A DNA stretch of 64,000 nucleotides from Vicinamibacteria bacterium (GTDB lineage Bacteria > Acidobacteriota > Vicinamibacteria > Marinacidobacterales > Marinacidobacteraceae). The stretch covers positions 640,001 through 704,000 of the forward strand of contig CAXXLQ010000004.1 in assembly GCA_963668695.2 (NCBI GenBank). The letters run 5' to 3'. Positions 1,922 through 50,706 of the stretch are shown here, in pieces. The translations under genes and the position numbers were made by a program. Positions within the stretch are counted from its first letter, which is position 1. Every line of letters starts with the position of its first letter. Under the pieces are notes generated by a model. It worked only from the letters and a program-made list of their open reading frames with translations. It ran no database searches and was not told where the DNA came from.

Positions 1922-2381
1922 TTAACAGCCTGTGGTGAAACCCGCGTGAGCGCCGAGAGCGGCCAGTTCTCCCGGTGGGGGCGAGGCGCCCGGCTGGCAA
2001 GGCGCGTGAGGGAGGAGCCCCCACCGGGAGAACTGGCCCGAGTGTATTTCGACCGAAACGCAACGCAGAGCGCCGCGAAGCGCCAGTTCTCCCGGTGGGG
2101 GGGCGGTTCAGCCGGGATGCATCGCCGGTCGAACGCCGCGTGGGTTTTGCCACAGGCTGTTAACAGCCTCTGGTGGAACCCGGGTGAGCGCCGAGAGCGG
2201 CCAGTTCTCCCGGTGGGGGCGAGGCGCCCGCCTGACAAGGCGCGTGAGGGAGGAGCCCCCACCGGGAGAACTGGCCCGAGTGTATTTCGACCGAAACGCA
2301 ACGAAGAGCGCCGCAAAGCGGCGCGGTTCAGGCGGGATGCATCGCCGGTCGAACGCCGCGTGGGTTTTGCCACAGGCTGTT
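1922..2381. mobile_element. Tandem pair of MITE-like inverted-repeat elements (family A)
   Basis: TTAA-CAGCCTGTGG...CCACAGGCTG-TTAA-CAGCCTCTGG...CCACAGGCTG-TTCA; five 18-nt modules. Confidence 0.85.
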
Positions 2382-2421
2382 CAAGGGCTCACTGGCCAGC
2401 CAGTCTCACGCTGGTGGCGCT

Positions 2422-2430
2422 TGTTATACT
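2422..2430 (+). promoter_or_regulatory. Possible extended -10 promoter element for yjbQ
   Basis: TGTTATACT (TGn-TATACT) about 65 nt upstream of ATG 2495. Confidence 0.35.
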
Positions 2431-2494
2431 GGCTTTCCGTTTGCTCGCTCCGGCCCCACGCCGACAGCGGGTAGGCCGGGTCAAGGAGTCCCAG

Positions 2495-2998
2495 ATGCAG
2501 AGCGTACTGACGCAACCGACGGTCAAGGTCGCCCAGCCGGAGTCCGGCCAGGACGTGTTCCGCGGCCAGATGAAGGTCATGCATCGGACGCTGAAAGTGG
2601 TCACGGATTCGCGCGTGGAACTGCACAACATCAGCGACCGCGTACGCGACCAGGTCCGGGATTCGGGCATCAAGGCCGGTTTCCTCATCCTCTCGACGCT
2701 TCACACCACGACCGCGCTTTTCCTGAACGAATTCCAGGCGGCCCTGATGGCCGACCTCACCGAGTGCCTCGAGCGGCTCGTGGACACCGAGGACGGTTAC
2801 CTCCACAACTGCGAAGACTGTTCCGATTGCGAGCGGAAGAATGCTGACGCGCACCTCCGCGCGGCGCTGCTCGGTCACAACGTGACCGTTCCGATCCACG
2901 AGGGAGAGATCAGCCTCGGACAGTGGCAGAGCATCCTCTTCGCGGAACTCGACGGGCCGCGCCAGCGGACGGTCACCGCTCACCTGATCGGAGTCTAG
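2495..2998 (+). CDS. yjbQ: YjbQ/UPF0047 family protein (secondary thiamine-phosphate synthase-like)
   Basis: HTTTALFLNE, NADAHLRA, LGQWQSILFAELDGPR motifs; AAGGAG RBS before ATG 2495. Confidence 0.85.
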   Translation: MQSVLTQPTVKVAQPESGQDVFRGQMKVMHRTLKVVTDSRVELHNISDRVRDQVRDSGIKAGFLILSTLHTTTALFLNEFQAALMADLTECLERLVDTEDGYLHNCEDCSDCERKNADAHLRAALLGHNVTVPIHEGEISLGQWQSILFAELDGPRQRTVTAHLIGV

Positions 2999-3042
2999 GA
3001 ACGCCGGTCTCCAGACCGGCATCGCCGCCCGGAGGGCGGCGA
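2999..3042. repeat. REP-like double hairpin (family B)
   Basis: GGAACGCCGGTCTCCAGACCGGCATCGCCGCCCGGAGGGCGGCG; related copies at 17370-17410 and 17467-17517. Confidence 0.6.
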
Positions 3043-3120
3043 GATCCCCGACGTCAGCCTCACCGATAGCTCCTGACCCCGCTACCGGGAACACGGCTCG
3101 GACAACACCGGATAGAGCCT

Positions 3121-3828
3121 GTGCCCTCGCCATCAGCAGGACCCCCGGTAGCCATCGTCACGGGCGCCAGTCAGGGGATCGGAGCCGCAACCGCCGTGAA
3201 GCTCGCCGAGCGTGGTTTCGCCGTCGCGCTGGCGGCGCGCCGCCCGATGGGTCTCGTCTCGATCGAGAATCGGATCCGGGAAACGGGCGGGTTCGCCTTT
3301 GTTGCCCCGACCGACATCACGGAATCGGGCCAGGTACGCGAGTTGGTCGCGGAAACCGAGAGGCGTTTTGGTCCCGTGGGATTGCTGGTGAACGCCGCGG
3401 GCGCGGCCTTTCGCGCTCCCCTTACCGCCACCTCCGAGGCGGACTTCGACCGGGTCCTGGGAGTGAATCTGAAGGGCGTGTTCCTCGCTACCAAGGCCGT
3501 TCTGCCGGCGATGATCGAACGGAGAAGCGGCCGCATCGTGAACCTGGCGGCGGTGGCGGCTCGGATCGGCGCTTCCCGGTTGGCCGCCTATGGCGCCTCG
3601 AAGTGGGGTGTCGTGGGGTTCACCAAGGCATGCGCGGAGGAACTGCGGCCCGCCGGAATCTCGGTGTTCGCGGTTTGCCCCGGTTCCGTGGATACCGAGT
3701 CCTACCGAACGGTGATCCCGGGCGCAAAGCCGAGGTCCAGCCCCGAAGCGGTGGCGGATGTCATTGTCTGGCTCGGCAGCGAAGCTCCCGCAGCCATGTC
3801 CGGCAGCGTGTTGGATGCGCCCGGGTAA
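3121..3828 (+). CDS. SDR family NAD(P)-dependent oxidoreductase
   Basis: TGASQGIG, VNAAG, YGASK motifs. Confidence 0.9.
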   Translation: MPSPSAGPPVAIVTGASQGIGAATAVKLAERGFAVALAARRPMGLVSIENRIRETGGFAFVAPTDITESGQVRELVAETERRFGPVGLLVNAAGAAFRAPLTATSEADFDRVLGVNLKGVFLATKAVLPAMIERRSGRIVNLAAVAARIGASRLAAYGASKWGVVGFTKACAEELRPAGISVFAVCPGSVDTESYRTVIPGAKPRSSPEAVADVIVWLGSEAPAAMSGSVLDAPG

Positions 3829-3839
3829 AGGTGAAGATC

Positions 3840-5808
3840 ATGAAGAGACTCCAAGCAGCCTGTGAACAAAGTCACGCGGCCCAGTTCTCCCGGTGGGGAC
3901 TTGAGCGGCGATCCATCCCGGCTGGCCCCCACCGGGAGAACTGGCCGCCCCGCTTCGCGTGGCTCATCGTTGCGCTTCGGTCGGAATACACCAGGTATTC
4001 GTCCCTCGCACGCCTTGTCAGCCGGGCGCCTCGCCCCCACCGGGAGAATTGGCGCTCTCGGCGCTCTCGCCACTTTGTCCACAGGCTGCTAACCCTCCTG
4101 GCCGTCGCGGGCGTCGCCCCGACGGGCCTCGCCTGCGGCCCCTCCGGGCCGGCCGCCGATGCGATCTACCGCAATGCGAAAGTGGTAACCGCCGACGACG
4201 ACTTCAACATCGCCGAGGCTTTCGCGGTGGTGGATGGACGGTTCGCGGCGGTGGGCTCGGAGGAGGCAGTCGAGGAAGCCTTTCCCGGCGGCGCCGCGGA
4301 GGTCGTGGATCTCCAGGGGAAGACGGTCCTTCCGGGGTTCAACGACAACCACATCCACCTCGGCCCCGGCCGGGCCCTGCAGCGCTGGGAAGACGGGCTG
4401 GTACCCGGACTGCCGGAATGGTCGGCGGAGGCGACCGAGCCGGACGAGCTCTTCGCCGCGCTGGAGGCGGAGGCAGCTACGAGGTCGCCGGGCGAGTGGA
4501 TTCGCGGCGGGCTCACCCGGATGGACTGGCCGAACAGCCGGATCCCGGACCGCTGGCTCCTGGACGAGGCCGCCCCCGACAACCCGGTGATGCTCACCCG
4601 CGGGCCCCACACCTACTTGCTGAACTCACCGGCGCTGCAACTCGCGGGAATCGACCGCAACACGCCCGACCCGGAGGGGGGCTGGATCTTCCGCGACGCG
4701 AACGGCGAACCGACCGGCCGCGTCCTCGAAGCGGCGCGCCGGATCGTGGATCGAGTCCTTCCCCCGGCGCCGGAAGTCCCCTACGAGAGGGGCATCGAGA
4801 CCATGCGCGCGACGCTGGGCAAGCTGGCCGCCATGGGGATCACCAGCGTGAACATCGCCGGGGTCCGGCCGAGGGGGATTCCGGCGGTGCGGGACCTCTA
4901 CGCCCGCTACGGCGAGGAGCTACCGCGGGCGACGATGCAGGTGCGCCTGAGCCCCGGCCACGACACCTACGACGACCCGGAGGAAGGGATACGGCGCGAG
5001 ACCCAAGCGCTCGAAGAACTCGGCTTCGTTACCGGCGAGGGGGACTCCCGTTTCCGGGTCGGCGCGGTGAAGATGAGCATTGACGGCGGCCTGAGCGCTC
5101 CGGTGTTCTGGTCGCTCGAGCCCTACGAGGGCCGGCCCGACTTCTTCGGCGCCATCCGCATCCCGGCCGAGGTCTTCCATCCGGTCGCGAAAGCGAGCCC
5201 ACGAACTCGGCTGGCAGCTCGGCATCCACACCATGGGCGACGGCGCCGTGAAGATGGTGGCGGAAGCGATGGCCCGCATCCTGGACGAAATCCCCCGCGA
5301 GGACCACCGGCACTACCTGCACCACGTGGCGGTCAAACCACCCGCGGACACCATCGCGCTCATGGCGGAGCACGGCATCATGGTGGCGAGCCAGCCGTCC
5401 TTCACCGTGGGGCTCGGCGCCTACGCCGAGGAGGCGCTCACCGCCGAACGGGAAGCAACCCAGAATCCGACCCGTTCCCTGCTCGACGCCGGAGTTCGCG
5501 TCTCCCACGGCTCCGACTCGGCGCCTTACGGGCCGCTGATCACGATCTGGACCGCGGTCACCCGGCGGGGCTTCGACGGCGAGGTGCACGGGCCGGAAGA
5601 AGCGGTCAGCATCGAGGAAGCGATCCGCCTGCACACCCGGGAGCCGGCCTTCTTCACCTTCGAAGAGAGCGAGAAGGGCACCATCGCCGAGGGCATGTTG
5701 GCCGACTTCATCGTGCTGTCCGACGACATTCTCACGGTCCCGGTGGACGACATCCGCGACCTGCGGGTCGAGCGAACGTTCATCGGCGGCCGGGAGGTCA
5801 AGCCGTAA
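3840..5808 (+). pseudogene. Amidohydrolase-3 family lipoprotein with in-frame MITE in the signal peptide and a +1 frameshift near 5191
   Basis: DLQGKTVLPGFNDNHIH, K-SIDGGL, IHTMGD, GSDS, GMLADF motifs split over two frames; extra A in GCGAAAGCGA (VAKRAHELGWQ expected); could be a sequencing error. Confidence 0.75.
3853..4092. mobile_element. MITE-like element (family A) inside the amidohydrolase 5' end
   Basis: CAGCCTGTGAACAAAG...CTTTGTCCACAGGCTG-CTAA; three 18-nt modules. Confidence 0.85.
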
Positions 5809-5843
5809 GGGCGGCGCGACCGCCCCCAGGGGGGGAGATTCCC

Positions 5844-6245
5844 TTAGAGAGTCTTTACGGTCTCCGGCTGGATGTAGTAGGCGACCCGCACTTCCCCGGG
5901 GCGGCGCCACTCGTAGCGATCGGTCCCGATGTACTTGCGGGCGAGGCGGTCGATCCCCTCTTCCGCGCCTTCCTCGGCAACTTTTACCACCCGGCCCCGG
6001 ATCATCAGTGCCTTGAAGGGATCGTCCGGATGGGTGGCGGAGAGCGCCACCCGCGCATCGCGCCGGATGTTGATGTCCTTGACCCGCCCTGCCGCGGAAT
6101 TCACGACGATCAGATCGCCGTCGGTCTCCGCCCACACCGGGGAAACCTGGGGGCTGCCGTCGGCCATCAGGGTGGCCAGGTGGACATAGGCCCGGGTCGC
6201 CAGGAATTCCTGGACTTCCGGGGAGAGGGTGTTCGTTCTGGGCAT
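5844..6245 (-). CDS. PPOX class F420-dependent oxidoreductase (pyridoxamine 5'-phosphate oxidase family)
   Basis: LATLMADGSPQVSPVW, GRVKDINIRRDARVAL, LARKYIG. Confidence 0.85.
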   Translation of the reverse strand: MPRTNTLSPEVQEFLATRAYVHLATLMADGSPQVSPVWAETDGDLIVVNSAAGRVKDINIRRDARVALSATHPDDPFKALMIRGRVVKVAEEGAEEGIDRLARKYIGTDRYEWRRPGEVRVAYYIQPETVKTL

Positions 6246-6268
6246 GTCTTGGAGTCTCCCGGCGGCTG

Positions 6269-7360
6269 TCAGTTCGATTCCGTCAGTTCCCGCTCGACCT
6301 CATCCCTGAGTTGTTCGGACGGCACCGCGCCGCCAACGTATCGCCCGTTCACGAACACGGCGGGCGTCCCACCCTGTCCGAGCGCCATGGCGGCTTCAAA
6401 GTCCGTCTGCACCCTGCCGTAGTGGCGGCCCGAGTTGACGCATTCGGCGAACGCTTCGGTGTCGAGTCCCAGGAGCACCGCGTGCTGCTCGAGGTTGTCC
6501 GGCGAGAGGTTTTCGTCGGTCCAGAGCGCGTCGTGGTATTCCCAGAACTTCCCCTGGTCCTCCGCGCAGATCGAGGCCTCAGCGGCCTTCTGCGCCAGCG
6601 GATGCATGTTGCGCAGCGGGTAGTGCCGGAAAACGAGGCGGATCTTCCCCTCGTACTCCTCGGCTTCGCGGAGCTGGTCGAGGGTGGTGTTGAAGCGGCG
6701 GCAATAGGGGCACTCGAAATCGGAGAAGACCACGATCTCCACCGGCGCGTCTTCGGGACCTATCGTTGAATGGCCTTCCGTCTCGATCGCCACCCGGTAG
6801 GCGGGTACGGCCAGATTCCATTCGGCCTCGCCCAACAAGCGGTTGCCGGCCATTTCGATATTCCGCGTCATCTTCTGGTTCGCAATCTGCCGCCGGAGGC
6901 TGGTCCCGATCTCTTCGAGTGACCGTCCCCCGAACTGCTGGCGGTTCTGGTTGTACACGTTCTGGACCTCTTCGTCGCTGACTTCCGGAAGGCCGATCTC
7001 GTTCGTGTAGTACTGGTTCAGGGTCATCCCCTTCTCCGCGGCCGCGGCCATGAGCAGTTGCTCCCGCGCCGCCCGCACCACGCTCTCCTCCAGCAACTCG
7101 TGGCTCTTCGTGTAGTAGTCGCTCCGGAGCTGAGCGAGTTGGAACCGATCCCGCTCCGAGAGATCGTCGAGAGTGATCTCCTCACCGTTCAGGATCCCGA
7201 GCACCTCGGAGTCCACACTGTCCGGAAGAAGCGAGCCAGAGCCGCGGGCCTGGCCCCCGGAACCGGCGGCGGCGCCGCCCTCGCAGCCTACGAAGGCGAA
7301 GAGAGAGACGATGGCCGCAATCGGAGCGGCCGTCCGAAAGAACATGCGCATGAGAGACAC
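6269..7360 (-). CDS. DsbA/thioredoxin-domain lipoprotein
   Basis: FSDFECPYC, FRHYPL, GTPAVFVNG; lipobox-like FVGC. Confidence 0.85.
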   Translation of the reverse strand: MSLMRMFFRTAAPIAAIVSLFAFVGCEGGAAAGSGGQARGSGSLLPDSVDSEVLGILNGEEITLDDLSERDRFQLAQLRSDYYTKSHELLEESVVRAAREQLLMAAAAEKGMTLNQYYTNEIGLPEVSDEEVQNVYNQNRQQFGGRSLEEIGTSLRRQIANQKMTRNIEMAGNRLLGEAEWNLAVPAYRVAIETEGHSTIGPEDAPVEIVVFSDFECPYCRRFNTTLDQLREAEEYEGKIRLVFRHYPLRNMHPLAQKAAEASICAEDQGKFWEYHDALWTDENLSPDNLEQHAVLLGLDTEAFAECVNSGRHYGRVQTDFEAAMALGQGGTPAVFVNGRYVGGAVPSEQLRDEVERELTESN

Positions 7361-7462
7361 CTCGTTCTCGAGCGAATCAGGGCCGCCGACGCACGGCGCC
7401 CGCTAACGGCCAAGCGCCACTATTCGCGAGAAACCGAAAGGATACCCCGTCGCGAGGAGTCT

Positions 7463-7619
7463 GTCCGGGTAGTGGCGTGAGCACCGAGACCGGTGAGGCG
7501 CCCGGCTGACAAGGCGCAAATCGGGAGGCATACCGACGTATGCCGACTGATTTGGAACGCCGAGCGAAGCGGTTCAGCCGGGATGATTCGCCGGTCGAAT
7601 GCCGCGCCACTACCCGGAC
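7463..7619. mobile_element. Divergent family A element with no 18-nt modules
   Basis: Shares GGCGCCCGGCTGACAAGGCGC and GGTTCAGCCGGGATG...CGCCGGTCGAA core; ends GTCCGGGTAGTGGCG / CGCCACTACCCGGAC; overlaps the dtd stop. Confidence 0.7.
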
Positions 7620-8071
7620 CGACTCCTTCCGGATGGGCTTTCAACGAGCAGGGTGTAAGGCCCGTCGTTCAGCAGGGAGACCTCCATCATCGCCCCGAAG
7701 CGGCCGGTGCCCACCGGAACCGCGAGTTCCCGGAGCTCGGCGCAGAATTCCTCGTAGAGCGCTTCGGCCTCCGGCCCCGGGGCTGCCCGGGTAAAGGAGG
7801 GACGCCTCCCCTTGCGGCAGTTCCCCAGCAGGGTGAACTGGGACACGGCGAGCACCTCGCCACCGATCTCGAGGACGCTTCTCTCCGGTTGTGCCTCGGG
7901 GGCTCGAAACATCCGGAGCCCGGCGATCTTCTTCGCGAGCCAGGCGGCGTCCTCCGGGGTATCGGAGACCGAAACCCCAAGCAGGACCAGGAGTCCCTCT
8001 CCGATTTCGGAGACGAGTTGACCGCCTACCGAAACCGAGGCACGGGAGACCCGCTGAACGACCGCAATCAC
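7610..8071 (-). CDS. dtd: D-aminoacyl-tRNA deacylase
   Basis: VVQRVSRASV, SQFTL, KGRRPSF, NDGP motifs. Confidence 0.95.
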   Translation of the reverse strand: MIAVVQRVSRASVSVGGQLVSEIGEGLLVLLGVSVSDTPEDAAWLAKKIAGLRMFRAPEAQPERSVLEIGGEVLAVSQFTLLGNCRKGRRPSFTRAAPGPEAEALYEEFCAELRELAVPVGTGRFGAMMEVSLLNDGPYTLLVESPSGRSRSG

Positions 8072-8089
8072 CAGGCTGTCACCACTCGC

Positions 8090-11573: not shown

Positions 11574-11796
11574 CTAACAGCCTATGGGCAAGGTGGCGCG
11601 AGCGCCGAGGCCAGTGAGGCCCAGTTCTCCCGGTGGGGCCAGTTCTCCCGGTGGGGGCCCGGCTGACAAGGCGCGCGAGGAAGGAATACCGAGCGTATTT
11701 CGACCGAAGCGCAACGATGAGCGACGCGAAACGGAGTGGTTCAGCCGGGATGCATCGCCGGTCAAACGCCGCGTGACTTTGTCCATAGGCTGCTAA
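11574..11796. mobile_element. MITE-like element (family A) between the small membrane protein and SSS genes
   Basis: CTAA-CAGCCTATGG...CCATAGGCTG-CTAA; tandem 18-nt module pair. Confidence 0.85.
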
Positions 11797-18295: not shown

Positions 18296-18711
18296 CCGCC
18301 CGGGGAGCAAGCACCCCGCATGGCGCCCCGGGGGAGAAACACACCGAGTCTCGGAGGTTCTTGGCATGCAGGGCGCTTTCTCCCCGGGCAAGCAGCCTGT
18401 AGACAGAGTCTCGTGGCGTTCGAGCGGCGTTGCATCCCGGCTGAACCGCCCCGCTTCGCGTGGCTCATCGTTGCGCTTCGGTCGAAATACACCCGGTATG
18501 CCTCCCTCGCGCGCCTTGTCAGCCGGACCCCCACCGGGAGAACTGGGCCTCGCCCCCACCGGGAGGACTGGCCGCTCTCGGCGCTCACGCCACTCTGTCC
18601 ACAGGCTGCTGGTGGCGCGAATCGCTCCGCGATTCCCTCCACCGTTTCTCGCGGGGAGGGGAAACCGTCTCCCCACACCCCTCCCCCGCGACGCTCCGCG
18701 CCGCGCGACCC
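18296..18711. repeat. Composite repeat: ~90-nt IR unit + family A MITE (18393-18608) + ~95-nt unit
   Basis: Flanking units match the reverse complement of 61301-61497 (AAGCACCCCGCATGG...GGGCGCTTTC; CGCGATT...CCACCGTTT...GGGGAGGGGAAACC...CTCCCCACACCCC...GCTCCGCGCCGC). Confidence 0.8.
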
Positions 18712-25556: not shown

Positions 25557-25833
25557 TTAACAGCCTGTGGTGAAGCCCGCGTGAGCGCCGAGAGCGGGGA
25601 GGCCCAGTTCTCCCGGTGGGGCCAGTCCTCCCGGTGGGGGCCCGGCTGACAAGGCGCGTGAGGGAGGAGCCCCCACCGGGAGAACTGGCCCGAGTGTATT
25701 TCGACCGAAACGCAACGCAGAGCGCCGCAAAGCGCCAGTTCTCCCGGTGGGGGGGCGGTTCAGGCGGGATGGATCGCCGCTCGAGCCCCCACCGGGAGAA
25801 CTGGGCCGCGTGGGTTTTGCCACAGGCTGTTAA
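25557..25833. mobile_element. MITE-like element (family A) on the pilM-like stop codon
   Basis: TTAA-CAGCCTGTGG...CCACAGGCTG-TTAA; five 18-nt modules. Confidence 0.85.
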
Positions 25834-26792: not shown

Positions 26793-27052
26793 CTAGCAGC
26801 CGGTGGTGAAACCCACGCGGCGTTCGACCGGCGATCCATCCCGGCTGAACCACTCCGCTTCGCTGCGTTCTGCGTTGCGTTTCGGTCGAAATACACCCGG
26901 GCCAGTTCTCCCGGTGGGGGCTCCTCCCTCACGCGCCTTGTCAGCCGGGCCCCCACCGGGAGGACTGGCCCCACCGGGAGAACTGGGCCTCGCCCCCACC
27001 GGGAGAACTGGCCGCTCTCGGCGCTCACCCGGGTTCCACCACCGGCTGCTAG
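26793..27052. mobile_element. MITE-like element (family A) abutting the IS630 left end
   Basis: CTAG-CAGCCGGTGG...CCACCGGCTG-CTAG; four 18-nt modules. Confidence 0.85.
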
Positions 27053-28191
27053 TGTGGTGTCCCGCAAATGGCGATGATAATATGGGGTCCTCCCAGGAGG
27101 TCCCCATGCCGAAAGGACGCCCCCTGTCGCCACTCGTCCTCGATGAGGAACAGCGAGGCCAACTGATGGCCCTGTCCCGATCCACCTCCATGCCCCACGG
27201 ACTGGTGCAGCGGGCGCGGCTGATTCTCGCGAGCGCCGAAGGCCTCTCCAACCAGGCGGTGGCGGAACGCGTCGGCCTCACGCCCAACGTCGTGGGGAAG
27301 TGGCGACGCCGCTTCCGGGAGGCCGGGGTCACCGGCCTCCACGACGAACTCCGCCCGGGACGGCCGCGCACCTACAGCGACGAGAAAGTGGCGACGCTCA
27401 TCCACCATGCCCTCCAGGAAGAGCCCGACAATGCCACCCATTGGAGCGTGCGCTCCATGGCGGACGCGCAGGGAGTCTCCAAGAGCACGGTGCAGCGCTG
27501 GTTCACCCTGTGCGGCGTCAAGCCGCACCTGACCCGGACCTTCAAGCTCTCTACCGACCCCTTCTTCATCGAGAAAGTCCGGGACATCGTGGGGCTCTAC
27601 CTCCATCCACCGGACAACGCCATGGTCCTCTGCGTGGACGAAAAGTCCCAGATCCAGGCCTTGAACCGCACCCAGCGAGCCTTGCCCCTGGGCCTGGGCT
27701 ATGTCGAGGGCTACACCCACGACTACCTCCGCCACGGCACCACCACCCTCTTCGCCGCCCTGGATGCCGCCACCGGAAAGGTCATCGCTCGCTGCCGCCA
27801 GCGGCACCGCCATCAGGAGTTCCTCGACTTCCTGCGTCTCATCGACCGCGAAACTCCGGGAGATCTTGACCTCCACCTGGTGGTCGACAACTACGCCACC
27901 CACAAACACCCCAAGGTCCGCGCCTGGCTGGCCCGCCGACCTCGTTTCCACCTCCACTTCACCCCGACCTATGCCTCCTGGCTCAACCAGGTGGAGCGCT
28001 GGTTCGGACTCATCAGCCAGCAGGCCATCAAGCGCGGCAGTTTCCAAAGCGTCACCCAGTTGAAGCAGACGATCATGGCTTTCACCGACCAATACAACCA
28101 CAACTCCACCCCCTTCGTCTGGGTCGCCACCGCACAATCCATCCTGGAGAAGCTGGAACGACTAGCAACTCGTATTTACAGGACACCACAC
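27052..28191 (+). mobile_element. IS630-family insertion sequence, 1140 bp, TA duplication
   Basis: IRL GTGTGGTGTCCCGCAAAT / IRR(rc) GTGTGGTGTCCTGTAAAT; TA on both sides. Confidence 0.95.
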
Positions 28192-28194
28192 TAG
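27106..28194 (+). CDS. IS630 family transposase
   Basis: HTH N terminus, [24 protein letters not shown] (DDE triad); GGAGG RBS; TAG stop uses the target TA. Confidence 0.95.
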
Positions 28195-28272
28195 CAGCCG
28201 GTGGACAAAGTGACGTGAGCGCCGAGGCCCCCACCGGGAGAACTGGGCCGCGTGACTTTGTCTACCGGCGGC
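28191..28272. mobile_element. ~80-nt short form of family A
   Basis: CTAG-CAGCCGGTGGACAAAG...one 18-nt module...CTTTGTCTACCGGC. Confidence 0.75.
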
Positions 28273-28588
28273 TGGCGCCAGCGACGATACAGGCCGCAGA
28301 GGGCGCGCGATACGGCATCTCGTCGACGCGGCAACAACGGGATGGACGGTCTCGACGCACGTCCCACCGACTGTCGAAACCCGTCGGTTTTCAACGCCCC
28401 ACAGTAGAAGAGATCGCCAATTCCGGACTTGGTATCCGGTGGTAGGATGAGTGATCGGGCTGCGGGCAGCGTCCGCCCGTGCGAACCAGCGCGGCGGCCG
28501 TTTTCCCGCTTGATTACCGTTCGAACGAGTTCCAGCGCTTCGACAACTGTCGCAGATCGTTCGGTATCCGGTCGCAAAACCGGGATCC

Positions 28589-28663: not shown

Positions 28664-30730
28664 ATGCGCGACTATCAGACCGCCGAACTTCGCACTCTCG
28701 CCGTGGCCGGACATGGAACGTCCGGCAAGACAACGCTCGTCTCGGCGCTCCTCTACGCCGCCAGCGCGGTAACCCGCCTCGCCCGTGTCGAAGATGGGAA
28801 CACGACGACCGACTTTGACGAGGACGAGATCGAACGCGGCATCAGCCTGAGTGCGGCGCCAACCCATTTCGACTGGGGCGGCACCAAAATTAATCTGCTG
28901 GACACGCCGGGTTACAGCAACTTCCTCACCGAGGCGAAACTGGCCATGCCCGTCGTCGACACCGCCCTCATTTCGGTGTGCGCGGTGGATGGAGTGGGCG
29001 TCAACACGGAACGGGTCTGGGGTTTCGCGGAGGAAAACCGCGCGGCGGCCATCTTTGCCATCAACCGCATGGATCGCGACCGAGCGTCGTTCGAGCGCAC
29101 CCTGAGCGCGATCCAGGAGTCCTTCGGGCGCACCGCCATCCCTGTCCAGTTGCCCATCGGAAACGAGGCCGGCTTTTCGGGAGTCGTGGACCTCATCGCG
29201 TTAAAGGCAATCACGGGTCCCGGGCCGGACGGGAAGGGAGCGAAGACCGGCGACGTACCAGCCGAGCTGATGGAGCAGGTTGAGACGGCTCGCAACGAAC
29301 TCATGGAACTGATCGCCGAATCGGACGAGGAACTCCTGGACCAGTTCTTTTCGGAGGGAGAGTTGACGCCGGAGCAAATGATCCGGGGCCTGCGAACGGC
29401 AGTGGCCGCCCGTTTGATCTTCCCGGTGACAGTGGTATCGGGGGCCCAAAACCTGGGAACCACGGCGCTCCTCGATTTGATCGTTGCGGCCACTCCCGAC
29501 CCCGCCGGGCGGGGACCAGCCCGTGGAGTGAGCGGGGATGGCGAGCCGGTGGAACGCGACGTTGACGGCTCCGCACCCGCCAGCGTCTACGTGTTCAAGA
29601 CCATCGCCGACCCCTTCGCGGGGCGGCTCAGCCTGTTCCGGGTCATGACCGGAACCCTGGGTCCCGACACCCAACTCAGGAACCTGACGACCGGCGGCGC
29701 GGGGCGGACTGGCGGCTTGAACGTCGTGAACGGGAAGGCCTTGGATCCGGTGTCGAAGCTGTCGGCAGGCGATCTCGGCTGTTTCGCCAAGCTGCGGGAA
29801 ACATTCACCGGGGACACGCTGGCCTCGGACGATGGGATCCGCTTCGTGCGCCCCGAGGCGCCCCATCCGGTCATCAGCTTCGCAATCGAACCCAAGTCCC
29901 GGGGAGATGAGGAAAAGATCTCTCAGGCGCTCCAGCGGCTTCGCGAGGAGGATCTGACACTGAGATTCGACCGCGACCAGGAACTGCTCCTCTCGGGTAC
30001 CGGGCAGCTCCACATCGAGGTGGTGGTATCCCGGCTGAAGCGAAAGTTCGGAGTCGAAGTCGAGTTGAAGCCTCCGCGGGTGCCGTATCGCGAGACGATC
30101 GCCGTAACCGCCGAGGCCCACGGGCGTCACAAGAAGCAGACCGGTGGTCATGGCCAGTTCGCCGACTGCCGCGTGCGCGTCGAGCCGATCGAACGAGGCA
30201 AGGACTTCGAGTTCGTGAGCAAGATCGTCGGCGGCGCCATCCCGCGCCAGTTCATCTCGGCCATCGAGAAGGGATTTCAAGACGCCCGACAAAAGGGGTA
30301 TCTGGCGGGTTACCCCGTCGTGGACTTCCGGGCAACGGTGTTCGACGGCAAGTTCCACGCCGTCGATTCGTCAGAGATCGCGTTCAGGATCGCGGCGTCC
30401 CTCGCGTTCAAGGACGCCATGGCCAAGTGCCGGCCGACGCTCCTGGAGCCGATCATGTCCGTCGTGATCACCGTTCCCGACGACAACACCGGGGACGTTC
30501 TCGGCGATCTGAACGCCCGCCGGGGCCGGACGCAGGGCATGGACCGGAAGGGCTCGCAAACCGCGATCACGGCACAGGTCCCTATGGCCGAAATGCTCAC
30601 TTACGAGCCGACCCTGACCTCCCTGACCGGGGGACGGGGGGGCTTCCAAATGGAATTCTCCCATTACGACCCCGTCCCCTCGAATCTGGCGAAGTCGTTG
30701 ATCGACGCCTACCAGACGCGTAACGACTGA
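28664..30730 (+). CDS. Elongation factor G-like paralog (EF-G2)
   Basis: GHGTSGKTT, ERGIS, DTPG, NRMD, KQTGGHGQF, DSSE; divergent from canonical fusA at 47091. Confidence 0.9.
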   Translation: MRDYQTAELRTLAVAGHGTSGKTTLVSALLYAASAVTRLARVEDGNTTTDFDEDEIERGISLSAAPTHFDWGGTKINLLDTPGYSNFLTEAKLAMPVVDTALISVCAVDGVGVNTERVWGFAEENRAAAIFAINRMDRDRASFERTLSAIQESFGRTAIPVQLPIGNEAGFSGVVDLIALKAITGPGPDGKGAKTGDVPAELMEQVETARNELMELIAESDEELLDQFFSEGELTPEQMIRGLRTAVAARLIFPVTVVSGAQNLGTTALLDLIVAATPDPAGRGPARGVSGDGEPVERDVDGSAPASVYVFKTIADPFAGRLSLFRVMTGTLGPDTQLRNLTTGGAGRTGGLNVVNGKALDPVSKLSAGDLGCFAKLRETFTGDTLASDDGIRFVRPEAPHPVISFAIEPKSRGDEEKISQALQRLREEDLTLRFDRDQELLLSGTGQLHIEVVVSRLKRKFGVEVELKPPRVPYRETIAVTAEAHGRHKKQTGGHGQFADCRVRVEPIERGKDFEFVSKIVGGAIPRQFISAIEKGFQDARQKGYLAGYPVVDFRATVFDGKFHAVDSSEIAFRIAASLAFKDAMAKCRPTLLEPIMSVVITVPDDNTGDVLGDLNARRGRTQGMDRKGSQTAITAQVPMAEMLTYEPTLTSLTGGRGGFQMEFSHYDPVPSNLAKSLIDAYQTRND

Positions 30731-30924: not shown

Positions 30925-31465
30925 TTAGCAGCCCCTGGACAAAGTCATGCGGCCCAGTTCCCCCGCTGGGGGCCTCGCCGCTCACACCCCCGGTTCCACA
31001 GGCTCCTAGCAGCCTGTGGCAAAACCCACGCGGCGTTCGACGGGCGATGCATCCCGCCCAAACAGCCGGTGATGAAACCCACGCGGCCCAGTTCTCCCGG
31101 TGGGGGCTCGGCCAGCGATCCATCCCGTCTGAACCGCGTCGCTTCGCGCCGCTCATCGTTGCGTTTCGGTCGGAATACACTCGGGCCAGTTCTCCCGGTG
31201 GGGGCTCCTCCCTCACGCGCCTTGTCAGTCGGGCGCCTCCCCGGCCTCGGCGCTCACGTGGGTTCCACCACCGGCTGTTCACCGCCCCGCTTCGCGGGGC
31301 TCTGCGTTGCGCTTCGGTCGAAATACACCCGGGCCAGTTCTCCCGGTGGGGGCTCCTCCCTCGCGCGCCTTGTCAGCCGGGCCCCCACCGGGAGGACTGG
31401 CCCCACCGGGAGAACTGGGCCTCGCCCGTCTCGGCGCTCACGCAGGTTTCACCACAGGCTCCTAG
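30925..31465. mobile_element. Cluster of family A elements: short form, then a copy with another copy nested inside it
   Basis: Short form 30929-31005; outer copy 31010-31461 interrupted by inner copy 31063-31277; ends on the rplQ TAG. Confidence 0.8.
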
Positions 31466-38211: not shown

Positions 38212-38218
38212 GGCTTCT

Positions 38219-38422
38219 TAGGTACTCATGGACAAGGTGGCGCGAGCGCCGAGAGTGGCCAGTCTCCCGGTGGGGGCGAGGCGCCCGGCGGACAAGGCGC
38301 GCGAGGGAGGAATACCTGATGTATTTCGACCGAAGCGCAACGATGAGCGGAGCGGAGCGGAGTGGTTCAGCCGGGATGGATCGCCGGTCGAACGCCGTGT
38401 CACTTTGTTCATGAGTTGCTTA
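38219..38422. mobile_element. MITE-like element (family A) inside the spc operon between rpsE and rpmD
   Basis: ACTCATGGACAAGG...CTTTGTTCATGAGT ends, family core, one 17-nt module variant; abuts the rpsE TAA. Confidence 0.8.
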
Positions 38423-42054: not shown

Positions 42055-42087
42055 AACGTTCTTTCCGTTCGCATTCTTCTGCGGCCC

Positions 42088-42737: not shown

Positions 42738-42761
42738 GACGTCTGTCCTCCCGGATCCTCT

Positions 42762-43466: not shown

Positions 43467-43468
43467 TC

Positions 43469-43828: not shown

Positions 43829-43871
43829 GGTGTCACCCCCGGCCCTGGAAAGCGCACCCGCGTCCGCGGCC

Positions 43872-44156: not shown

Positions 44157-44177
44157 GTGCTTCTACCCTTTCCGCTT

Positions 44178-45011: not shown

Positions 45012-45015
45012 CGCG

Positions 45016-45306
45016 CTAGACGCCCTTGAAGATCTCGATGGAATGACCCTGTTCAAGGGTCACGAACGCCTTTTTCCAATTCGGGCGCCGACCGACGAAA
45101 CGGCCCCATCGCTTGTTCTTGCCGATGAAGTTGGCAGTGCGCACATCCTTCACTTCCACCTCGAAGAGAAGCTGGACAGCGTGACGGATCTGAGCCTTGT
45201 TGGCCCTCCGGTCCACCCGAAAACAGACGACGTTCTGGGTCTCACGAAGACGCTCCGCCTTTTCGGTGGTCAGCGGTTCGAGGATCACGCGGTCGGCTTC
45301 CATCAT
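45016..45306 (-). CDS. rplW: 50S ribosomal protein L23
   Basis: [21 protein letters not shown]. Confidence 0.95.
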
Positions 45307-46016: not shown

Positions 46017-46042
46017 TTTCGTTATTCCTGTTGCGTCCCTGG

Positions 46043-46675
46043 TCAGAACTTGCGAATTTCGACGGTCCCGCCGCGGGGACCCGGAACGGCGCCTCGAACT
46101 GCGACCAGGTTTTCTCGGGCATCGACCCGAACGATCCGAAGGTTGCGAACTGTCACCCGGTCCCGACCAAGCTGACCGGGAAGCCGGGTGCCCGGAAGTA
46201 CCCGGGAGGGGGTTGCACACATCCCGATGGCCCCCGGCGCCCGGTGGAACTTGGAACCGTGGGATTTCGGTCCACCATGGAAACCGTGGCGTTTCATGAC
46301 TCCGGCAAAGCCTTTGCCCTTGCTGACACCCGTGATCCGGACCAGATCGTTCGGCGAGAACACCTCGGCGCCGAGCCGGGAGCCGACCTGCAGATCCTCA
46401 CCCGAATCCGCCTGAAACTCTCGTAGTACCGACGCGGACGGCGCTCCGGCCGCTTCCAGCCGGGCCGCGAGAGCGCGGTTTCGACTCGGGCGGCTCCCCG
46501 GGCCCCTCAACCGCTCCAGCCCGACCTGCACCGCCTCGTACCCGTCCGCCGTAGCGGTCTTTTTCTGTACGACAACGCATGGTCCTATCCGAATCAGGGT
46601 GACGGGAATCACACGGCCGTCTTCTCCAAAATGCTGGGTCATCCCCAGCTTCGTCCCCAGTAGCCCCTTCATCAT
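46043..46675 (-). CDS. rplC: 50S ribosomal protein L3
   Basis: KLGMT, SKGKGFAG, GAVPG. Confidence 0.97.
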   Translation of the reverse strand: MMKGLLGTKLGMTQHFGEDGRVIPVTLIRIGPCVVVQKKTATADGYEAVQVGLERLRGPGSRPSRNRALAARLEAAGAPSASVLREFQADSGEDLQVGSRLGAEVFSPNDLVRITGVSKGKGFAGVMKRHGFHGGPKSHGSKFHRAPGAIGMCATPSRVLPGTRLPGQLGRDRVTVRNLRIVRVDARENLVAVRGAVPGPRGGTVEIRKF

Positions 46676-46714
46676 TCTTTCCTCTACGTATCCCCGACTT
46701 TTGTTTCCCGTTCC

Positions 46715-47047
46715 CTACTTGGCCTGCGGCTCGTCCGCAATCATCGCCTTGATCTCGACATGCACGCCCGCTGGAAGATCGAGACGGGACAACGCATCCA
46801 CCGTGGTCGGCGTGGATCCCAGAATGTCCAGAAGCCGCTTGTGCGTGCGGAGTTCAAACTGCTCCCGGGACTTCTTGTCCACGTGCGGGGAGCGGAGCAC
46901 CGTGTAGCGGTTCTTCACCGTCGGCAACGGAATCGGACCGGCCACCGTGGCGCCGGTCCTCTTCGCGGTCTCCACGATCTCACTCGTGGATTGATCCAGC
47001 AGACGGTGATCGAACGCCTTCAGTCGGATACGGATTTTTTCGTTCAT
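46715..47047 (-). CDS. rpsJ: 30S ribosomal protein S10
   Basis: [23 protein letters not shown]. Confidence 0.97.
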
Positions 47048-47090
47048 CGGTTGAAACCCTTGTCCTCGTCAGGCGTCCTCATGCGGTTTG

Positions 47091-49163
47091 TCAGGCGCTC
47101 GCCATGACTTCCGCCATGACGCTCTCCGGGGCTTCCTCATAGGATCCGAAGTGCATCGTGTACGTTGCGCGCCCCTGTGTAGCCGAACGAATGTCCGTCG
47201 CGTAACCGAACATCCCGGCAAGCGGCACCCTAGCCTCGACCACCTGAGCGTTCCCCCGCATCGAGAGACCGCTGATGCGGGCACGCCGCGAATTCAGGTC
47301 ACCCATCACCTCTCCGGTGAAGGCGTCCGGAGTCACGACCTCCACCTTCATCACCGGTTCGAGGATCACGGGGGAGCAGCGGCGCAGCGCCTCCTTGACG
47401 GCCATGGATCCGGCGATTCGGAAGGCAATCTCGGAGCTGTCCACGGTGTGGAAGGTGCCGTCATACAAGCGCACCGTCACGCCGGTCACCGGATAGCCGG
47501 CAAGCGGCCCTGCCGCCAAGGCGTCGCGCGCTCCCTCTTCCACCGCCGGAATGTACTCCCGCGGTATCGAACCGCGGGCGATGTCATTGATGAACTCGAA
47601 CGACTCGACGGGATTCGGAAACACCTCGATCTTCACGTGACCGTACTGACCCCGGCCGCCTGTCTGCCGGACATACCGCCCTTCGGACTTCCTCGTGGTC
47701 CGGATGGTTTCTCGATACGCCACCCGGGGTTGACCCACGACCGCACCCACCTGAAACTCGCGAAGCAACCGATCCACGATGACCTCCAGGTGCAGTTCCC
47801 CCATGCCGCTGATGAGGGTCTGCGCCGTTTCGGCGTCCGTCGTCACCCGGAAGGTGGGGTCTTCGTGCGTCAGTTTCCCGAGAGCGCCGGCGAGCTTTTC
47901 CTGATCGGCCTTCGTTGCCGGCTCGATGACCCGGGAAATGACCGGCTCAGGGAACTCCATCGCTTCGAGAACGACGGGGGCCTTGGGAGCGCAAATCGTG
48001 TCCCCGGTTCTCGCGTTTCTGAGACCGACCACGGCCGCGATATCCCCCGCATAGACCTCGCGAATTTCCTCGCGCTTGTTGGCGTGGATCTTGAGGAGCC
48101 GGCCTACGCGCGACCGGACCGAACGGGTGGAGTTGAGCATCATGTCACCCGTCCTGAGCACCCCCGAATAGACCCGGAAGAACGAGAGCTGGCCGACGAA
48201 CGGGTCCGCCATGACCTTGAAGACGAGCGCGGCAAACGGCGCGTCGTCTCTCGCGTCCCGAACGGTTGGGGTGGGGTCCGTGACGGAGGCGATGCCGGTG
48301 ATCGACGGGACATCGGTAGGGGCGGGAAGATAGGAGATGACGGCATCCAGCAGAGGCTGCACGCCCTTGTTGCGGAAGGCCGACCCGCACAGGACCGGAA
48401 CGAGTTGAAGGGTGACGGTCGAACGGCGAAGCGCGGCTTCGCACTCCTCAGCAGTCAGGTCGCCGTTCTGATCCCAGGCCTCAAGCGCCTCCAGATCGCA
48501 TTCACAGATCTTTTCGATCAGCGCTTCCCGAGCCAAACGCGCTTCCTCCTCGCGCTCCGGAGCGATTTCGGTTTCCTCGTACCGGGCACCGAGAACATCC
48601 CCGTGATAGCGAAACTCCCTCATCCGAACGAGGTCCATCACTCCTCCGAAGGTGTCTTCCGCTCCGATCGGGAGCTGAATCGCTCCGGCCCGGGCCCCGA
48701 GGCGGTCCTCGATCATGGCCACGACCCGCTTGAAGTCGGCTCCCGCCCGATCCATCTTGTTCACGAAGGCGATGCGAGGCACGCCGTACTTGTCGGCCTG
48801 CCGCCAGACCGCCTCCGACTGCGGCTCTACCCCGGCGACTGCGCAAAACACCGCCACCGCGCCATCGAGGACGCGGAGGGATCGCTCCACCTCGGCAGTG
48901 AAGTCCACGTGTCCCGGCGTATCGATGATGTTGACTCGATGGCCCTTCCAAAAACAGGTCGTGGCGGCCGACGTGATCGTGATGCCGCGCTCCTGCTCCT
49001 GCTCCATCCAATCCATCGTCGCGGTTCCTTCATGCACCTCACCGAGCTTGTAGGTAACGCCCGTGTAGTAGAGGATCCGTTCGGTAGTAGTCGTCTTCCC
49101 CGCGTCAATGTGCGCCATGATCCCGATGTTGCGGGTATCGGCGAGAGCGACTTTGCGGGGCAT
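47091..49163 (-). CDS. fusA: Elongation factor G
   Basis: [23 protein letters not shown]. Confidence 0.98.
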
Positions 49164-49225
49164 GAGAACTAAAGGGCGGAGTGTGGAATACGTCGGTTGA
49201 CAGTGTGATTACCAGCGGTGGGTGA

Positions 49226-49696
49226 CTACCAGCGGTGGTGTGCGAATGCCTTGTTGGCTTCCGCCATCTTGTGGGTGTCTTCGCGCTTCTTGATGGCGCC
49301 ACCCCGATTCTGGGAAGCATCGAGCAACTCACCGGCGAGTTTTTCCGCCATCGTTTTCTCGGGACGCCTCCGCGCATATCCGACGATCCAGCGCAGGGAC
49401 AACGTAGTCCGCCGCTCGGGACGGACTTCGTAGGGAACCTGGACATTGGCGCCTCCCTTGCGGCGACTCTTCACCTCAAGGGTCGGCTTGACGTTCTGGA
49501 CAGCCTCGCGGAAGGTGGTCAGCGGCTCACCGTTCGTCTTGTCGCGGATCCGGTCGAAAGCGCCGTACACGATCGATTCCGCAGTGGACTTCTTCCCGTC
49601 CAGCATCACCTTGTTGATGAAGGATGAGACGAGAACGCTCTGGTAGCGGGCATCCGGCGCGGGTTGCCGCTTCGGCACATCACGGCGTCTGGACAT
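49226..49696 (-). CDS. rpsG: 30S ribosomal protein S7
   Basis: [17 protein letters not shown]. Confidence 0.97.
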
Positions 49697-49744
49697 CGTC
49701 TCTTGCTCCGAATTCGTCTCTGTTGTAGAGCCTGGCTCCGTACG

Positions 49745-50119
49745 TCAGCTCTTTGGCTTCTTGGTTCCGTACTTGGACCGGCCGTTCTTTCGCCCGTCCA
49801 CCCCACCGGCATCGAGGGCCCCCCGGATTACGTGGTACCGCACACCCGGGAGGTCCTTGACCCGGCCACCGCGTAGAAGCACGATGGAGTGCTCCTGCAG
49901 GGAGTGACCAACGCCAGGGATGTAGGTCGTGACCTCGATCCCGTTGGTAAGCCGCACTCGAGCGACCTTTCTCAGGGCCGAGTTCGGCTTCTTGGGATTG
50001 ATGGTGAAGACCCGAACACACACTCCCCGCCGCTGCGGACACCGCTGAAGCGCGGGGGAATCGGTGGACGGAGCCATCCGTTTCCGTCCGTGGCGGACAA
50101 GCTGATGAATCGTGGGCAT
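49745..50119 (-). CDS. rpsL: 30S ribosomal protein S12
   Basis: [18 protein letters not shown]. Confidence 0.98.
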
Positions 50120-50295
50120 GGGGAATTGGATCCGGATTTCAAGAATGCTGGCCCCCCGCAGGGGAAGGGAACTAGGACGTGCACCGCCCACCCGTCAGGG
50201 CTCGAAAATGAACGATCGGCGGCTGTCTCCCGAGGGGAAACGCTGACGTCCGCGACGCTCGAAGGAATGCGTTTTGGGCGCGGAGCGGACGGAGG

Positions 50296-50325
50296 ATTTT
50301 ACGCGCTGGAACGGACTCCTGTCAA
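50296..50325 (-). promoter_or_regulatory. Sigma70-type promoter for the rpsL operon
   Basis: TTGACA-N18-TAAAAT on the minus strand, about 180 nt upstream of rpsL. Confidence 0.7.
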
Positions 50326-50479
50326 ATCATGGAAACGCGCAGTAGCCGCCGCTATGGGTGCCCGAACAGCCCGCCGGGAACGGATCGGAAGACGGGCTCC
50401 GGGCCGAATGCGCCACCCGCCGGAATTGCCGCCGAGGCCGGTCCCCAGTGGGTTTTCCTGGCGGCGGCCGGAACCCGGA

Positions 50480-50706
50480 TAGCAGCCTGTGGACAAAGTG
50501 GCGTGAGCGCCGAGAGCGGCCAGTTCTCCCGGTGGGGGCGAGGCGCCCGGCTGACAAGGCGCGCGACGGAGGAATACCCAGTGTATTTCGACCGAAGCGC
50601 CAAGCACCGCGGAGACCCCGGAGCGAGAGGGATGGGGGACGGGAACACCCGGCCCCGGTCCCTCTTGAGCCGGGAGTGCCGCGGGACTTTGTCCACCGGC
50701 TGCTAA
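50480..50706. mobile_element. MITE-like element (family A) on the rpoC stop codon
   Basis: TAG-CAGCCTGTGGACAAAG...CTTTGTCCACCGGCTG-CTAA; one 18-nt module; atypical GC-rich hairpin segment inside. Confidence 0.8.

Follow-up and report, generated by a model that had tools for sequence, protein, structure and literature searches.

The window considered here is a 64,000-nucleotide (nt) stretch (C4:640001-704000) of a Vicinamibacteria genome assembled into four contigs (G000; 4.10 Mb, 67% GC). It carries a series of copies of a hairpin-forming MITE (a miniature transposable element with inverted repeats), named family A, in which an 18-nt word is present or absent at fixed positions, or slots. A search for this word, CCAGTTCTCCCGGTGGGG, on both strands and with up to two mismatches (the limit used below unless otherwise given) returned 29 copies between positions 1963 and 50537, of which 23 are exact, five have one mismatch and one has two; 100 dinucleotide-preserving shuffles of the window gave an expectation of zero. 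All 29 have family A flanks. These figures agree with an initial annotation of the window, which had reported about 30 copies, four head-to-tail doublets and from zero to five copies per element, and had described the arrangement as an element within an element. The last description was borne out as well: the unit is discrete, is present or absent at fixed slots and behaves independently of the scaffold phylogeny. The word is the invariant core of a cassette of about 20-21 nt, (G/S)-CCAGTTCTCCCGGTGGGG-GC, and in a clade of sponge-associated Vicinamibacteria (Acidobacteriota) several families of intergenic repeats contain this cassette as an optional component. The repeat features of the window are given below, slots being denoted by S and a number. 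A variant of the word, T6C (CCAGTCCTCC), occurs at 18554, 25622, 26951 and 31383.

1924..2161, plus strand: family A hairpin MITE recognised by terminal repeats, core marker and sequence, three cassettes (S1, S3, S4)
1963..1980, plus strand: cassette at S1
2019..2036, minus strand: cassette at S3
2083..2100, plus strand: cassette at S4
2162..2381, plus strand: family A, in tandem with the copy at 1924..2161, two cassettes (S1, S3), S4 and S5 empty
2201..2218, plus strand: cassette at S1
2257..2274, minus strand: cassette at S3
3854..4090, minus strand: family A, three cassettes, one of them at the rare slot S7
3881..3898, plus strand: cassette with an S5-type left flank and an atypical right flank
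3927..3944, minus strand: cassette at the rare slot S7 (GCGG/TT/CAG, middle bases replaced)
4035..4052, minus strand: cassette at S1, one mismatch
7455..7640, no strand assigned: diverged family A relative with different termini and zero cassettes, ends approximate
11576..11794, plus strand: family A, S2 doublet only
11621..11656, plus strand: S2 doublet, both units canonical
18391..18610, minus strand: family A, S1 (T6C variant) and a single S2 followed by GTCC
18529..18546, minus strand: single cassette at S2
18554..18571, minus strand: cassette at S1, T6C variant
25559..25831, plus strand: family A, five cassettes (S2 doublet, S3, S4, S5), slot states differing in the G001 and G008 orthologues
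25604..25639, plus strand: S2 doublet, canonical and T6C
25671..25688, minus strand: cassette at S3
25735..25752, plus strand: cassette at S4
25787..25804, minus strand: cassette at S5
26795..27050, minus strand: family A, cassettes at S3, S2 (doublet) and S1
26902..26919, plus strand: cassette at S3
26951..26986, minus strand: S2 doublet, canonical and T6C
26994..27011, minus strand: cassette at S1
28193..28275, no strand assigned: short deletion derivative, one cassette joining an S5 left flank to a reverse-S1 flank, right end approximate
28229..28246, minus strand: cassette at the recombinant junction (S5 left flank, reverse-S1 right flank)
30930..31463, no strand assigned: group of family A copies, some partial and some complete, with seven cassettes, three slots differing from the G001 orthologue
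30954..30971, plus strand: degenerate cassette with two mismatches, junction type as at 28229..28246
31088..31105, plus strand: cassette at S5, empty in the G001 orthologue
31186..31203, plus strand: cassette at S3, empty in the G001 orthologue
31334..31351, plus strand: cassette at S3
31383..31418, minus strand: S2 doublet, canonical and T6C
50481..50704, plus strand: family A, S1 only, beginning right behind the rpoC stop codon
50520..50537, plus strand: cassette at S1

Throughout G000 the word was found 1,288 times exactly, 1,566 times with at most one mismatch and 1,631 times with at most two, a density of roughly one per 2.5 kb; copies lie in either orientation, and inverted pairs are frequent. 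No exact 18-mer of the genome is commoner, and the most frequent unrelated word after it reaches 444 copies. The reversed word and a shuffled one gave no match at zero to two mismatches, and a second shuffled word gave a single match, at two mismatches. Copies with three mismatches number 48, as compared to 10-57 for the controls, and are thus at background level. Among the 1,631 copies, 1,554 are flanked by repeated DNA on both sides, 70 on one side and seven on neither. These seven look like decayed repeats, and the word almost never occurs in unique DNA (7/1,631). Thirty context classes with at least five copies each account for 1,438 of 1,630 copies; the word is immediately followed by GC in 24 of the 30 classes. 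Over all copies, the second position upstream is G in 92%, and the two positions downstream are G (86%) and C (87%). The genome-wide count, proposed initially to test whether the word is confined to the MITE scaffold, showed confinement to repeats but not to that scaffold, the 30 classes including a second family, B. The earlier remark that no frame of the word contains a stop codon, true by inspection, carries no weight, the copies being intergenic. With an 18-nt core, 20-21 conserved nucleotides and high copy number, the cassette falls in the size class of dispersed repeats of about 20-27 nt; having no halo of near-matches and only seven copies outside repeats, it lacks the traits of a DNA uptake sequence. 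Viral contigs searched with a 20-mer gave no match.

The hosts of the cassette are the hairpin MITE of about 190 nt (family A, at least eight slots), the family B units, which resemble repetitive extragenic palindromes (REPs; two slots), and others. Pairs of the terminal inverted repeat defined a crude set of 446 family A elements, whose lengths peak at steps of about 18 nt; once the 18-mers are removed, 300 of the 446 measure 185-194 nt. An alignment of 305 oriented standard copies revealed that slot orientation is fixed: S1, S2 and S4 point forward and S3 and S5 backward, with S1 reversed in three elements. Both orientations of the word do occur, as previously reported, but neither is free to occur at a given slot. 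S1 is filled in 95 of these elements, S2 in 104 (40 single and 64 double, for 168 cassettes), S3 in 127, S4 in 42 and S5 in 120; 79 copies carry no cassette. Tandem doublets are confined to S2 (64/305 elements) and the other slots are single, an arrangement different from a BOX-like tandem minisatellite. Slots S4', S6 and S7 are rare in G000, S6 being filled in 3 of 343 cases. The crude set holds 841 of the 1,631 copies, the remainder lying in variant-end copies, in tandem 71-nt sub-arrays and in other families. The 71-nt arrays, each unit of which consists of a MITE end and an S5 cassette, comprise three to six units at C4:2067532-2067762, at 2181770-2181859 and from 2867159 onward. A family B unit consists of a conserved GAGTTTCG, a hairpin whose stem is variable yet complementary, ATGCCGG and then a cassette slot; examples lie at C4:154639, 2122152 and 1770244 in G000 and also at L232:8530-8600.

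Cassettes also lie inside cassettes. Such nesting was seen at loci L015, L016, L030, L041 and L055 of a Vicinamibacteria genome of another genus, at an internal CGG/T/GGGG site where the T is replaced by word+GC, the signature found at slot S1. Embedding in mini-transposons is thus combined with self-nesting. The homologous scaffold in that genus uses slots that are partly different, S6 recurring there. In G000, deletion derivatives have their breakpoint at a cassette, with the left flank taken from one slot and the right flank from a different one; window positions 28193-28275 and 30930-31007 are examples, and nine and five cases were counted genome-wide. In the G001 orthologue of C4:615041-615231, a cassette is split by an unrelated 21-nt block; words similar to it occur three times in G000, and the block may represent another small module.

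Each slot exists as two alleles, which differ by the word plus one to three neighbouring bases for a net change of 18 nt (19 nt at S1). The S5 slot reads GGC/GT/TCG when empty and GGC/word+GC/TCG when filled; the corresponding alleles at S3 are CGG/TAT/TCC and CGG/G+word+GC/TCC. Word+GC takes the place of AT at S6 and of TT at S7, GC is exchanged for word+GG at S4 and for word+GT at the single S2, and a lone T gives way to word+GC at S1, in family B and in the nested cassette (+19 nt net). Counted with strict flanks, S5 is represented by 166 filled alleles (18-mer+GCT), 114 empty ones (GTT) and no recombinant, and S3 by 209 filled and 144 empty alleles. The signature '(N)T replaced by cassette+GC', with a G-rich left flank, is found at most of the at least eight slots and may reflect how they were seeded. 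Target duplication, a trait of transposons, is absent, the adjoining bases being substituted instead of repeated. Hence, of the clean 18-nt insertions described initially, the net length and the lack of duplication stand, and the cleanness does not, given the substituted neighbours and the 19 nt of S1. Slippage between short direct repeats was rejected in a by-hand check of S3 and S5, where no single deletion turns a filled allele into an empty one; in the initial annotation, too, slippage had been judged a difficult explanation.

Slot state varies independently of the scaffold. Of the 48 possible slot combinations, 38 were seen. A tree was built from the scaffolds after stripping the cassettes and masking the columns near slots (about 190 columns), and the state changes on it were compared with those obtained with shuffled labels. 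The observed/shuffled values, 73/81.7, 77/86.9, 89/97.3, 30/40.1 and 85/94.6, are close to one another, suggesting, on a weakly resolved tree, that slot state is nearly random with respect to the scaffold phylogeny. The correlation (r2) between slot state and the adjacent 1-3 nt is 0.95-0.97 at S3 and S5 and 0.26-0.34 at S1 and S2, and falls to 0.06 or less at all four for common scaffold polymorphisms 4-8 nt away. S4 shows strong linkage nowhere (r2 of 0.17 or less). The evidence for slot independence from linkage is stronger than that from the tree. The S2 doublet with its T6C marker is inherited as a unit.

Changes in slot state were followed between species in 0.4-1.2 Mb each from G001, G004 and G008, whose identity to the window genes is about 96%, 90% and 86%, respectively; loci were matched through their unique flanks. 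Comparison of G000 with G001 yielded 52 slots filled in both genomes, 10 filled only in G001 and eight only in G000 (18/70 discordant). With G004, 37 slots were filled in both and 10 + 10 were discordant, one-sided each way. All 48 orthologous empty/filled pairs (48/48) displayed the slot's own two alleles. The cassette is thus present or absent as a precise block within conserved paralogous and orthologous sequence, and slot states do differ between sister species. Larger changes occur too: the G001 orthologue of window positions 25559-25831 has the stretch from S2 to S4 deleted. Substitutions in the flanks were scored over 30 nt on each side of the slot, the nearest three bases being skipped. 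Between G000 and G001 they amount to 0.036 per nt at 16 discordant slots versus 0.046 at 36 concordant ones, and between G000 and G004 to 0.082 versus 0.065; discordant slots are without excess flank change.

Family A itself is highly active. Core counts are 633 in G000, 288 in G001, 408 in G004 and 378 in G008, and 33 loci within C4:300000-1600000 are occupied in G000 and empty in the relatives examined (G001, G004 and G008). Judging from CTAA...CTAA and TCAA...TTAA at loci 83, 244 and 80, the family appears to duplicate a 4-bp YTAA-like target. Its copies have no strand bias along the chromosome. The insertions that postdate the species split (33 loci) contain 2.56 cassettes per core, and the older shared copies (43 loci) 2.39; with occupancy equal in young and old copies, a net decay with age does not occur.

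The cassette is far better conserved than its surroundings. In the 305 aligned elements, mismatches per base amount to 0.77% for the cassettes (n = 555, ascertained at up to two mismatches, a limit beyond which hardly any copies exist) and to 10.5% for the scaffold relative to its consensus, a 14-fold difference. Exact cassettes make up 87% of the 555, or 96% when the T6C subtype is counted. An order-wide survey covered 55 genomes, 28 from the family and 27 from two sister families. With up to one mismatch, the word occurs in each of the other 15 members of the genus (between 8 and 776 copies, with hundreds in closed assemblies), in three further genera of the family and, as one copy, in G029, which represents a fourth. 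Its exact form is present in these 15 members and in the three further genera. Altogether 22 of the 55 genomes carry it, none of them among the 27 of the sister families. Species genomes of GTDB contain at least 94 matching stretches; among the matches listed, the carriers are Vicinamibacteria, Candidatus Marinacidobacterium and sponge-derived Acidobacteria metagenome-assembled genomes (MAGs), and single matches in a few unrelated taxa may be due to chance. Since the word is identical in four genera while its hosts drift, it appears to be under sequence constraint imposed by a sequence-specific reader, which may be a protein that binds DNA, a transposase or a nucleic acid. The low divergence fits one of the possibilities raised in the initial annotation, namely selection for a site of binding or pairing.

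Assembly type strongly affects these counts. Fragmented short-read MAGs of the genus contain 8-130 cassettes, as opposed to 690-1,570 in closed assemblies. Short-read contigs break inside cassettes, so that short-read MAGs undercount the cassette about a hundred-fold. Contigs of runs from at least three studies extend out of unique flanks into the cassette; of the run sequences that contain it, all but one are assembled contigs ending within cassettes. Contigs from RNA libraries cover MITE sequence, which by itself is no proof of transcription.

Candidate enzymes were sought in the same genomes. G000 contains no Y1 transposase or REP-associated tyrosine transposase (RAYT) detectable with the PF01797 profile and no RVT_1 reverse transcriptase (RT). 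The RAYT protein of G001, used as query, found no match in the cassette-rich genomes G000, G004, G035 and G030, which hold 1,566, 776, 259 and 70 cassettes, respectively. G000 and G004, which are among the closed genomes richest in repeats, have lost the gene without leaving a remnant. A RAYT-type gene is nevertheless found in 13 of 15 members of the genus, in the single g13 genome, in one of three g14 genomes and in none of eight from g9-g12. That of G001 scores 92.9 bits on the NCBIfam model REP_Tyr_transpos and has an empty family B unit directly upstream, suggesting that family B may be this RAYT's own REP. The cassette behaves otherwise: it lies within 200 nt of the gene at one of seven RAYT loci, so that the arrangement of a cognate RAYT flanked by its REPs is not seen, and cassettes per MITE core number 2.59 (G001) and 1.83 (G008) with RAYT and 2.47 (G000) and 1.90 (G004) without. 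RVT_1 domains were detected in four of the 28 genomes of the family. Writing of the motif by RT, as first envisaged, or by RAYT is thus not supported in G000. The search for a source copy next to an enzyme fared no better: only one multi-copy segment of 0.5-5 kb bounded by cassettes was found, of insertion sequence (IS) size (1.2 kb), and no autonomous parent.

An IS of the IS630 family, with DDE_3 and helix-turn-helix (HTH) domains, lies at window positions 27052-28191 between two family A copies, bordered by TA at 27050-27051 and 28192-28193. The orthologous site of G001 does not have it, nor does a contig of run X13 in which 26792 is joined to 28191; G000 carries one copy and G001 carries 13. 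The similarity of its ends made it a candidate mobiliser of family A, which was rejected: close homologues exist only in G000, G001 and G004, G008 (378 cores) having only relatives with 32% identity. An empty site without TA argues further against an IS630-type partner for the family.

As to folding, a 22-mer containing the cassette shows no tendency to self-pair (z of +0.63; 150 of 200 shuffles fold as well), and neither an imperfect palindrome forming its own hairpin nor a conserved secondary structure was found in it. Without cassettes, the family A scaffold forms a single long, imperfect hairpin. Where copies are loaded, cassettes in inverted orientation are predicted to pair into stems of 19-20 bp (S2 with S3, S4 with S5). 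The filling of S4 and S5 is unassociated (odds ratio 1.33); for S2 and S3 the odds ratio is 2.3.

We tentatively favour, with a probability of roughly 45%, a reading in which a sequence-constrained cassette passes between paralogous slots through templated copying that is very short and centred on the loop, and is only rarely seeded anew. A slot would switch state by copying from another copy of the same slot, through short gene conversion centred on the loop and involving hundreds of paralogous elements. New slots would arise rarely, by illegitimate copying of the cassette and its GC flank into G-rich ...(N)T sites, and a sequence-specific reader would hold the cassette constant across genera. 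A same-slot template is suggested because filled flanks are slot-specific, empty alleles are restored exactly and the word is absent from unique DNA; these same properties speak against the placement at non-homologous sites inferred initially, which would amount to generic insertion. The copied patch would be limited to the heterologous loop and its immediate neighbours, since linkage vanishes within a few bases and the flanks of discordant slots are clean. The recombinant junctions at cassettes and the co-converted flank of one polarised gain count for templated copying as well. The earlier interpretation is, overall, partly supported. A number of points weigh against templated copying. Ordinary RecA-type conversion tracts measure tens to hundreds of bases; tracts always spanning the base 2 nt off and almost never a polymorphism 4-8 nt away would be unusual for bacterial conversion, and we know of no bacterial pathway shown to make tracts this short. 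S1 and S2, 7 nt apart, are unassociated (odds ratio 0.91). The scaffold tree is weakly resolved, which inflates apparent homoplasy. Six events could be polarised with an outgroup, in a small set in which the compared G001 and G004 blocks share synteny with each other only in part; they comprise five losses and one gain, and the gain has a co-converted flank of at least 45 nt, as expected from an ordinary conversion tract. Evidence for gain in place is therefore thin, consisting of this event and of the equal occupancy of young and old copies. The reading also calls for a reader of the cassette that is so far hypothetical. Finally, homology leaves the seeding of at least eight slots with a shared signature unexplained, and this could point to a dedicated activity.

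Such an activity is at the heart of a possible, though clearly less probable, account in which the cassette is a truly mobile ultra-small element, inserted and excised by a dedicated trans-acting enzyme (HUH/RAYT-type on the folded single-stranded MITE, or other). The base-pair sharpness of the boundaries, with linkage gone beyond 3 nt, the unchanged flanks of discordant slots, the signature common to the slots with its G-rich left flank, the nesting at CGG/T/GGGG and the lineage-specific use of slots such as S6 would all be natural consequences of it, and a bona fide RAYT exists in most of the genus with a family B unit upstream of it in G001. Yet generic insertion would not yield slot-specific flanks such as GG at S4 and GT at S2, nor would generic excision restore slot-specific empty alleles; all but seven of 1,631 copies have repeated DNA next to them. 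The lack of RAYT and RT in G000 and of RAYT in G004, G035 and G030, the similar loading of cores with and without RAYT, the distance of the cassette from most RAYT genes and its want of a hairpin add to the difficulty. It is equally doubtful, for the time being, whether the cassette stands for a novel class of mobile DNA in Acidobacteriota, ultra-small in size (18-20 nt), in which sequence-specific machinery writes and erases defined slots of folded MITE and REP scaffolds with no need of a host RAYT or RT. Insertion could also be dispensed with altogether, if a few fully loaded ancestral masters had been amplified and the present diversity had come from subfamily inheritance, differential loss and ordinary recombination. 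The excess of polarised losses, the joint transmission of the S2 doublet and T6C, the occurrence of deletions between same-orientation cassettes and the finding that newly inserted MITE copies carry cassettes already are in keeping with this. We consider it unlikely, in view of the near-random slot states and their many combinations, the missing linkage at 4-8 nt, the undepleted old shared copies and the occurrence of the cassette in unrelated scaffold families and lineage-specific slots; moreover, a template is needed even for loss, if it is to bring back precisely the empty allele proper to the slot. More improbable still is a functional site, such as a DNA uptake sequence or a host-protein binding site, enriched by selection or molecular drive alone and lying in repeats incidentally. 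Point mutation gives rise to uptake sequences and binding sites, which are met with in coding as well as unique DNA, whereas this word comes as a discrete 18-nt block confined to repeats, with three-mismatch intermediates near background. Its density, its two orientations and inverted pairs, its exact conservation across genera and the family A copies behind rpoC (directly) and an EF-G-like gene (at about 200 nt) are in keeping with such a site, and function can coexist with templated exchange as the source of the constraint. The chance that the word is an adapter, vector remnant or assembly artefact is negligible. This explanation is refuted by its presence in 22 of 55 genomes of the order, in independent assemblies and MAG records of several studies, and by the contigs from at least three studies that cross from unique flank into cassette; the reversed pattern gave one match (G014) over the 55 genomes.

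The initial annotation knew of no equivalent. The closest precedent is given by the small dispersed repeats (SDR1-8) of Nostoc and Anabaena, characterised in the text available on them as 'very small mobile repeated elements'. SDRs reportedly lie, in many cases, within mini-transposons and within their own copies, and SDR4-6 are said to share a conserved predicted secondary structure with compensatory changes. Among the cyanobacterial genomes treated in a passage citing Elhai et al. 2008 (Genome Res 18:1484), no SDR-like repeat is reported outside Nostocaceae. By the same partial account, SDRs and the cassette are both modules far below transposon size (about 20-27 nt for SDRs), insert precisely at defined short targets and owe their movement to a mechanism that is unsolved in either case. 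The cassette differs from what is described there in belonging to another phylum, in being slightly shorter (18-20 nt), in having no predicted self-structure, in its slot-specific flanking alleles, which argue for templated exchange, and in comprising about 1,600 copies of one word. Literature searches returned no solved SDR mechanism and, supplementary files being outside the search, no paper on the repeats of these bacteria.

Other modular repeats each fail in at least one defining feature, and this applies to BIMEs, REPINs and BOX-type modular MITEs alike. Enterobacterial bacterial interspersed mosaic elements (BIMEs) are mosaics of REP or palindromic unit (PU) sequences with optional short motifs, for example the L motif bound by integration host factor (IHF). 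They resemble the present repeats as intergenic mosaics of a small number of short motifs with a set order and orientation, of which some are optional and one binds a protein, and a RAYT is present in the genus. Unlike in BIMEs, the unit that varies in the present repeats is other than the palindromic REP itself, sits inside a MITE with terminal inverted repeats and occurs in a host without RAYT. In pneumococcal BOX elements, the copy number of boxB varies. The MITE of Porphyromonas gingivalis contains a minisatellite, according to the portion of the report consulted (PMC4596501). Both of these share with family A a short MITE-internal unit whose copy number varies, as far as that portion describes it, but there the variation is in tandem copy number at a single place. 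The cassette occurs as single units scattered over at least eight slots, in either orientation and on scaffolds that are unrelated, with tandem doublets only at S2. REP doublets that form hairpins (REPINs) and are mobilised by RAYTs are likewise short, extragenic, hyper-abundant words, as set out in the available text of Bertels and Rainey 2011 (PMC3116915). The parallel extends to the RAYT in the genus and to the REP-like family B, which bears the cassette; it ends, against the REPINs as portrayed in that text, with a unit that is non-palindromic, does not flank RAYT (1/7 loci) and is most abundant in genomes without one.

Hardly any work has been devoted to repeats under about 30 nt that move as blocks. 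The present system is tractable: one invariant word is present in about 1,600 copies, every slot has two clean alleles, several closed sister genomes (86-96% identity) allow single events to be counted and given a direction, and natural lineages exist with and without RAYT. Should short-patch templated repair be the cause, it would expose a loop-specific conversion pathway that shuffles bacterial repeats; should an enzyme drive the exchange, a new kind of mobile DNA would be at hand. If a new mobile class is indeed involved, no earlier system outside Nostocaceae would have allowed the long-unsolved mobility of very small repeats to be traced, one event at a time, from one closed sister genome to the next. 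Conservation of the exact word across genera predicts a sequence-specific reader in uncultured sponge symbionts, and the repeat content of short-read MAGs is badly undercounted.

Two family A sites in the window lie behind genes. The copy at 50481-50704 abuts the stop codon of rpoC (50706-55043, minus strand), and the cluster at 30930-31463 starts about 200 nt past the EF-G-like gene (28664-30727), so that these copies occupy 3' untranslated or terminator positions of highly expressed genes. A search of the window against Rfam at gathering level returned one tRNA and nothing else. A further core marker lies at 38324-38342, where a terminal-repeat match and a nearby cassette are both absent; it probably represents a truncated or diverged copy of family A.

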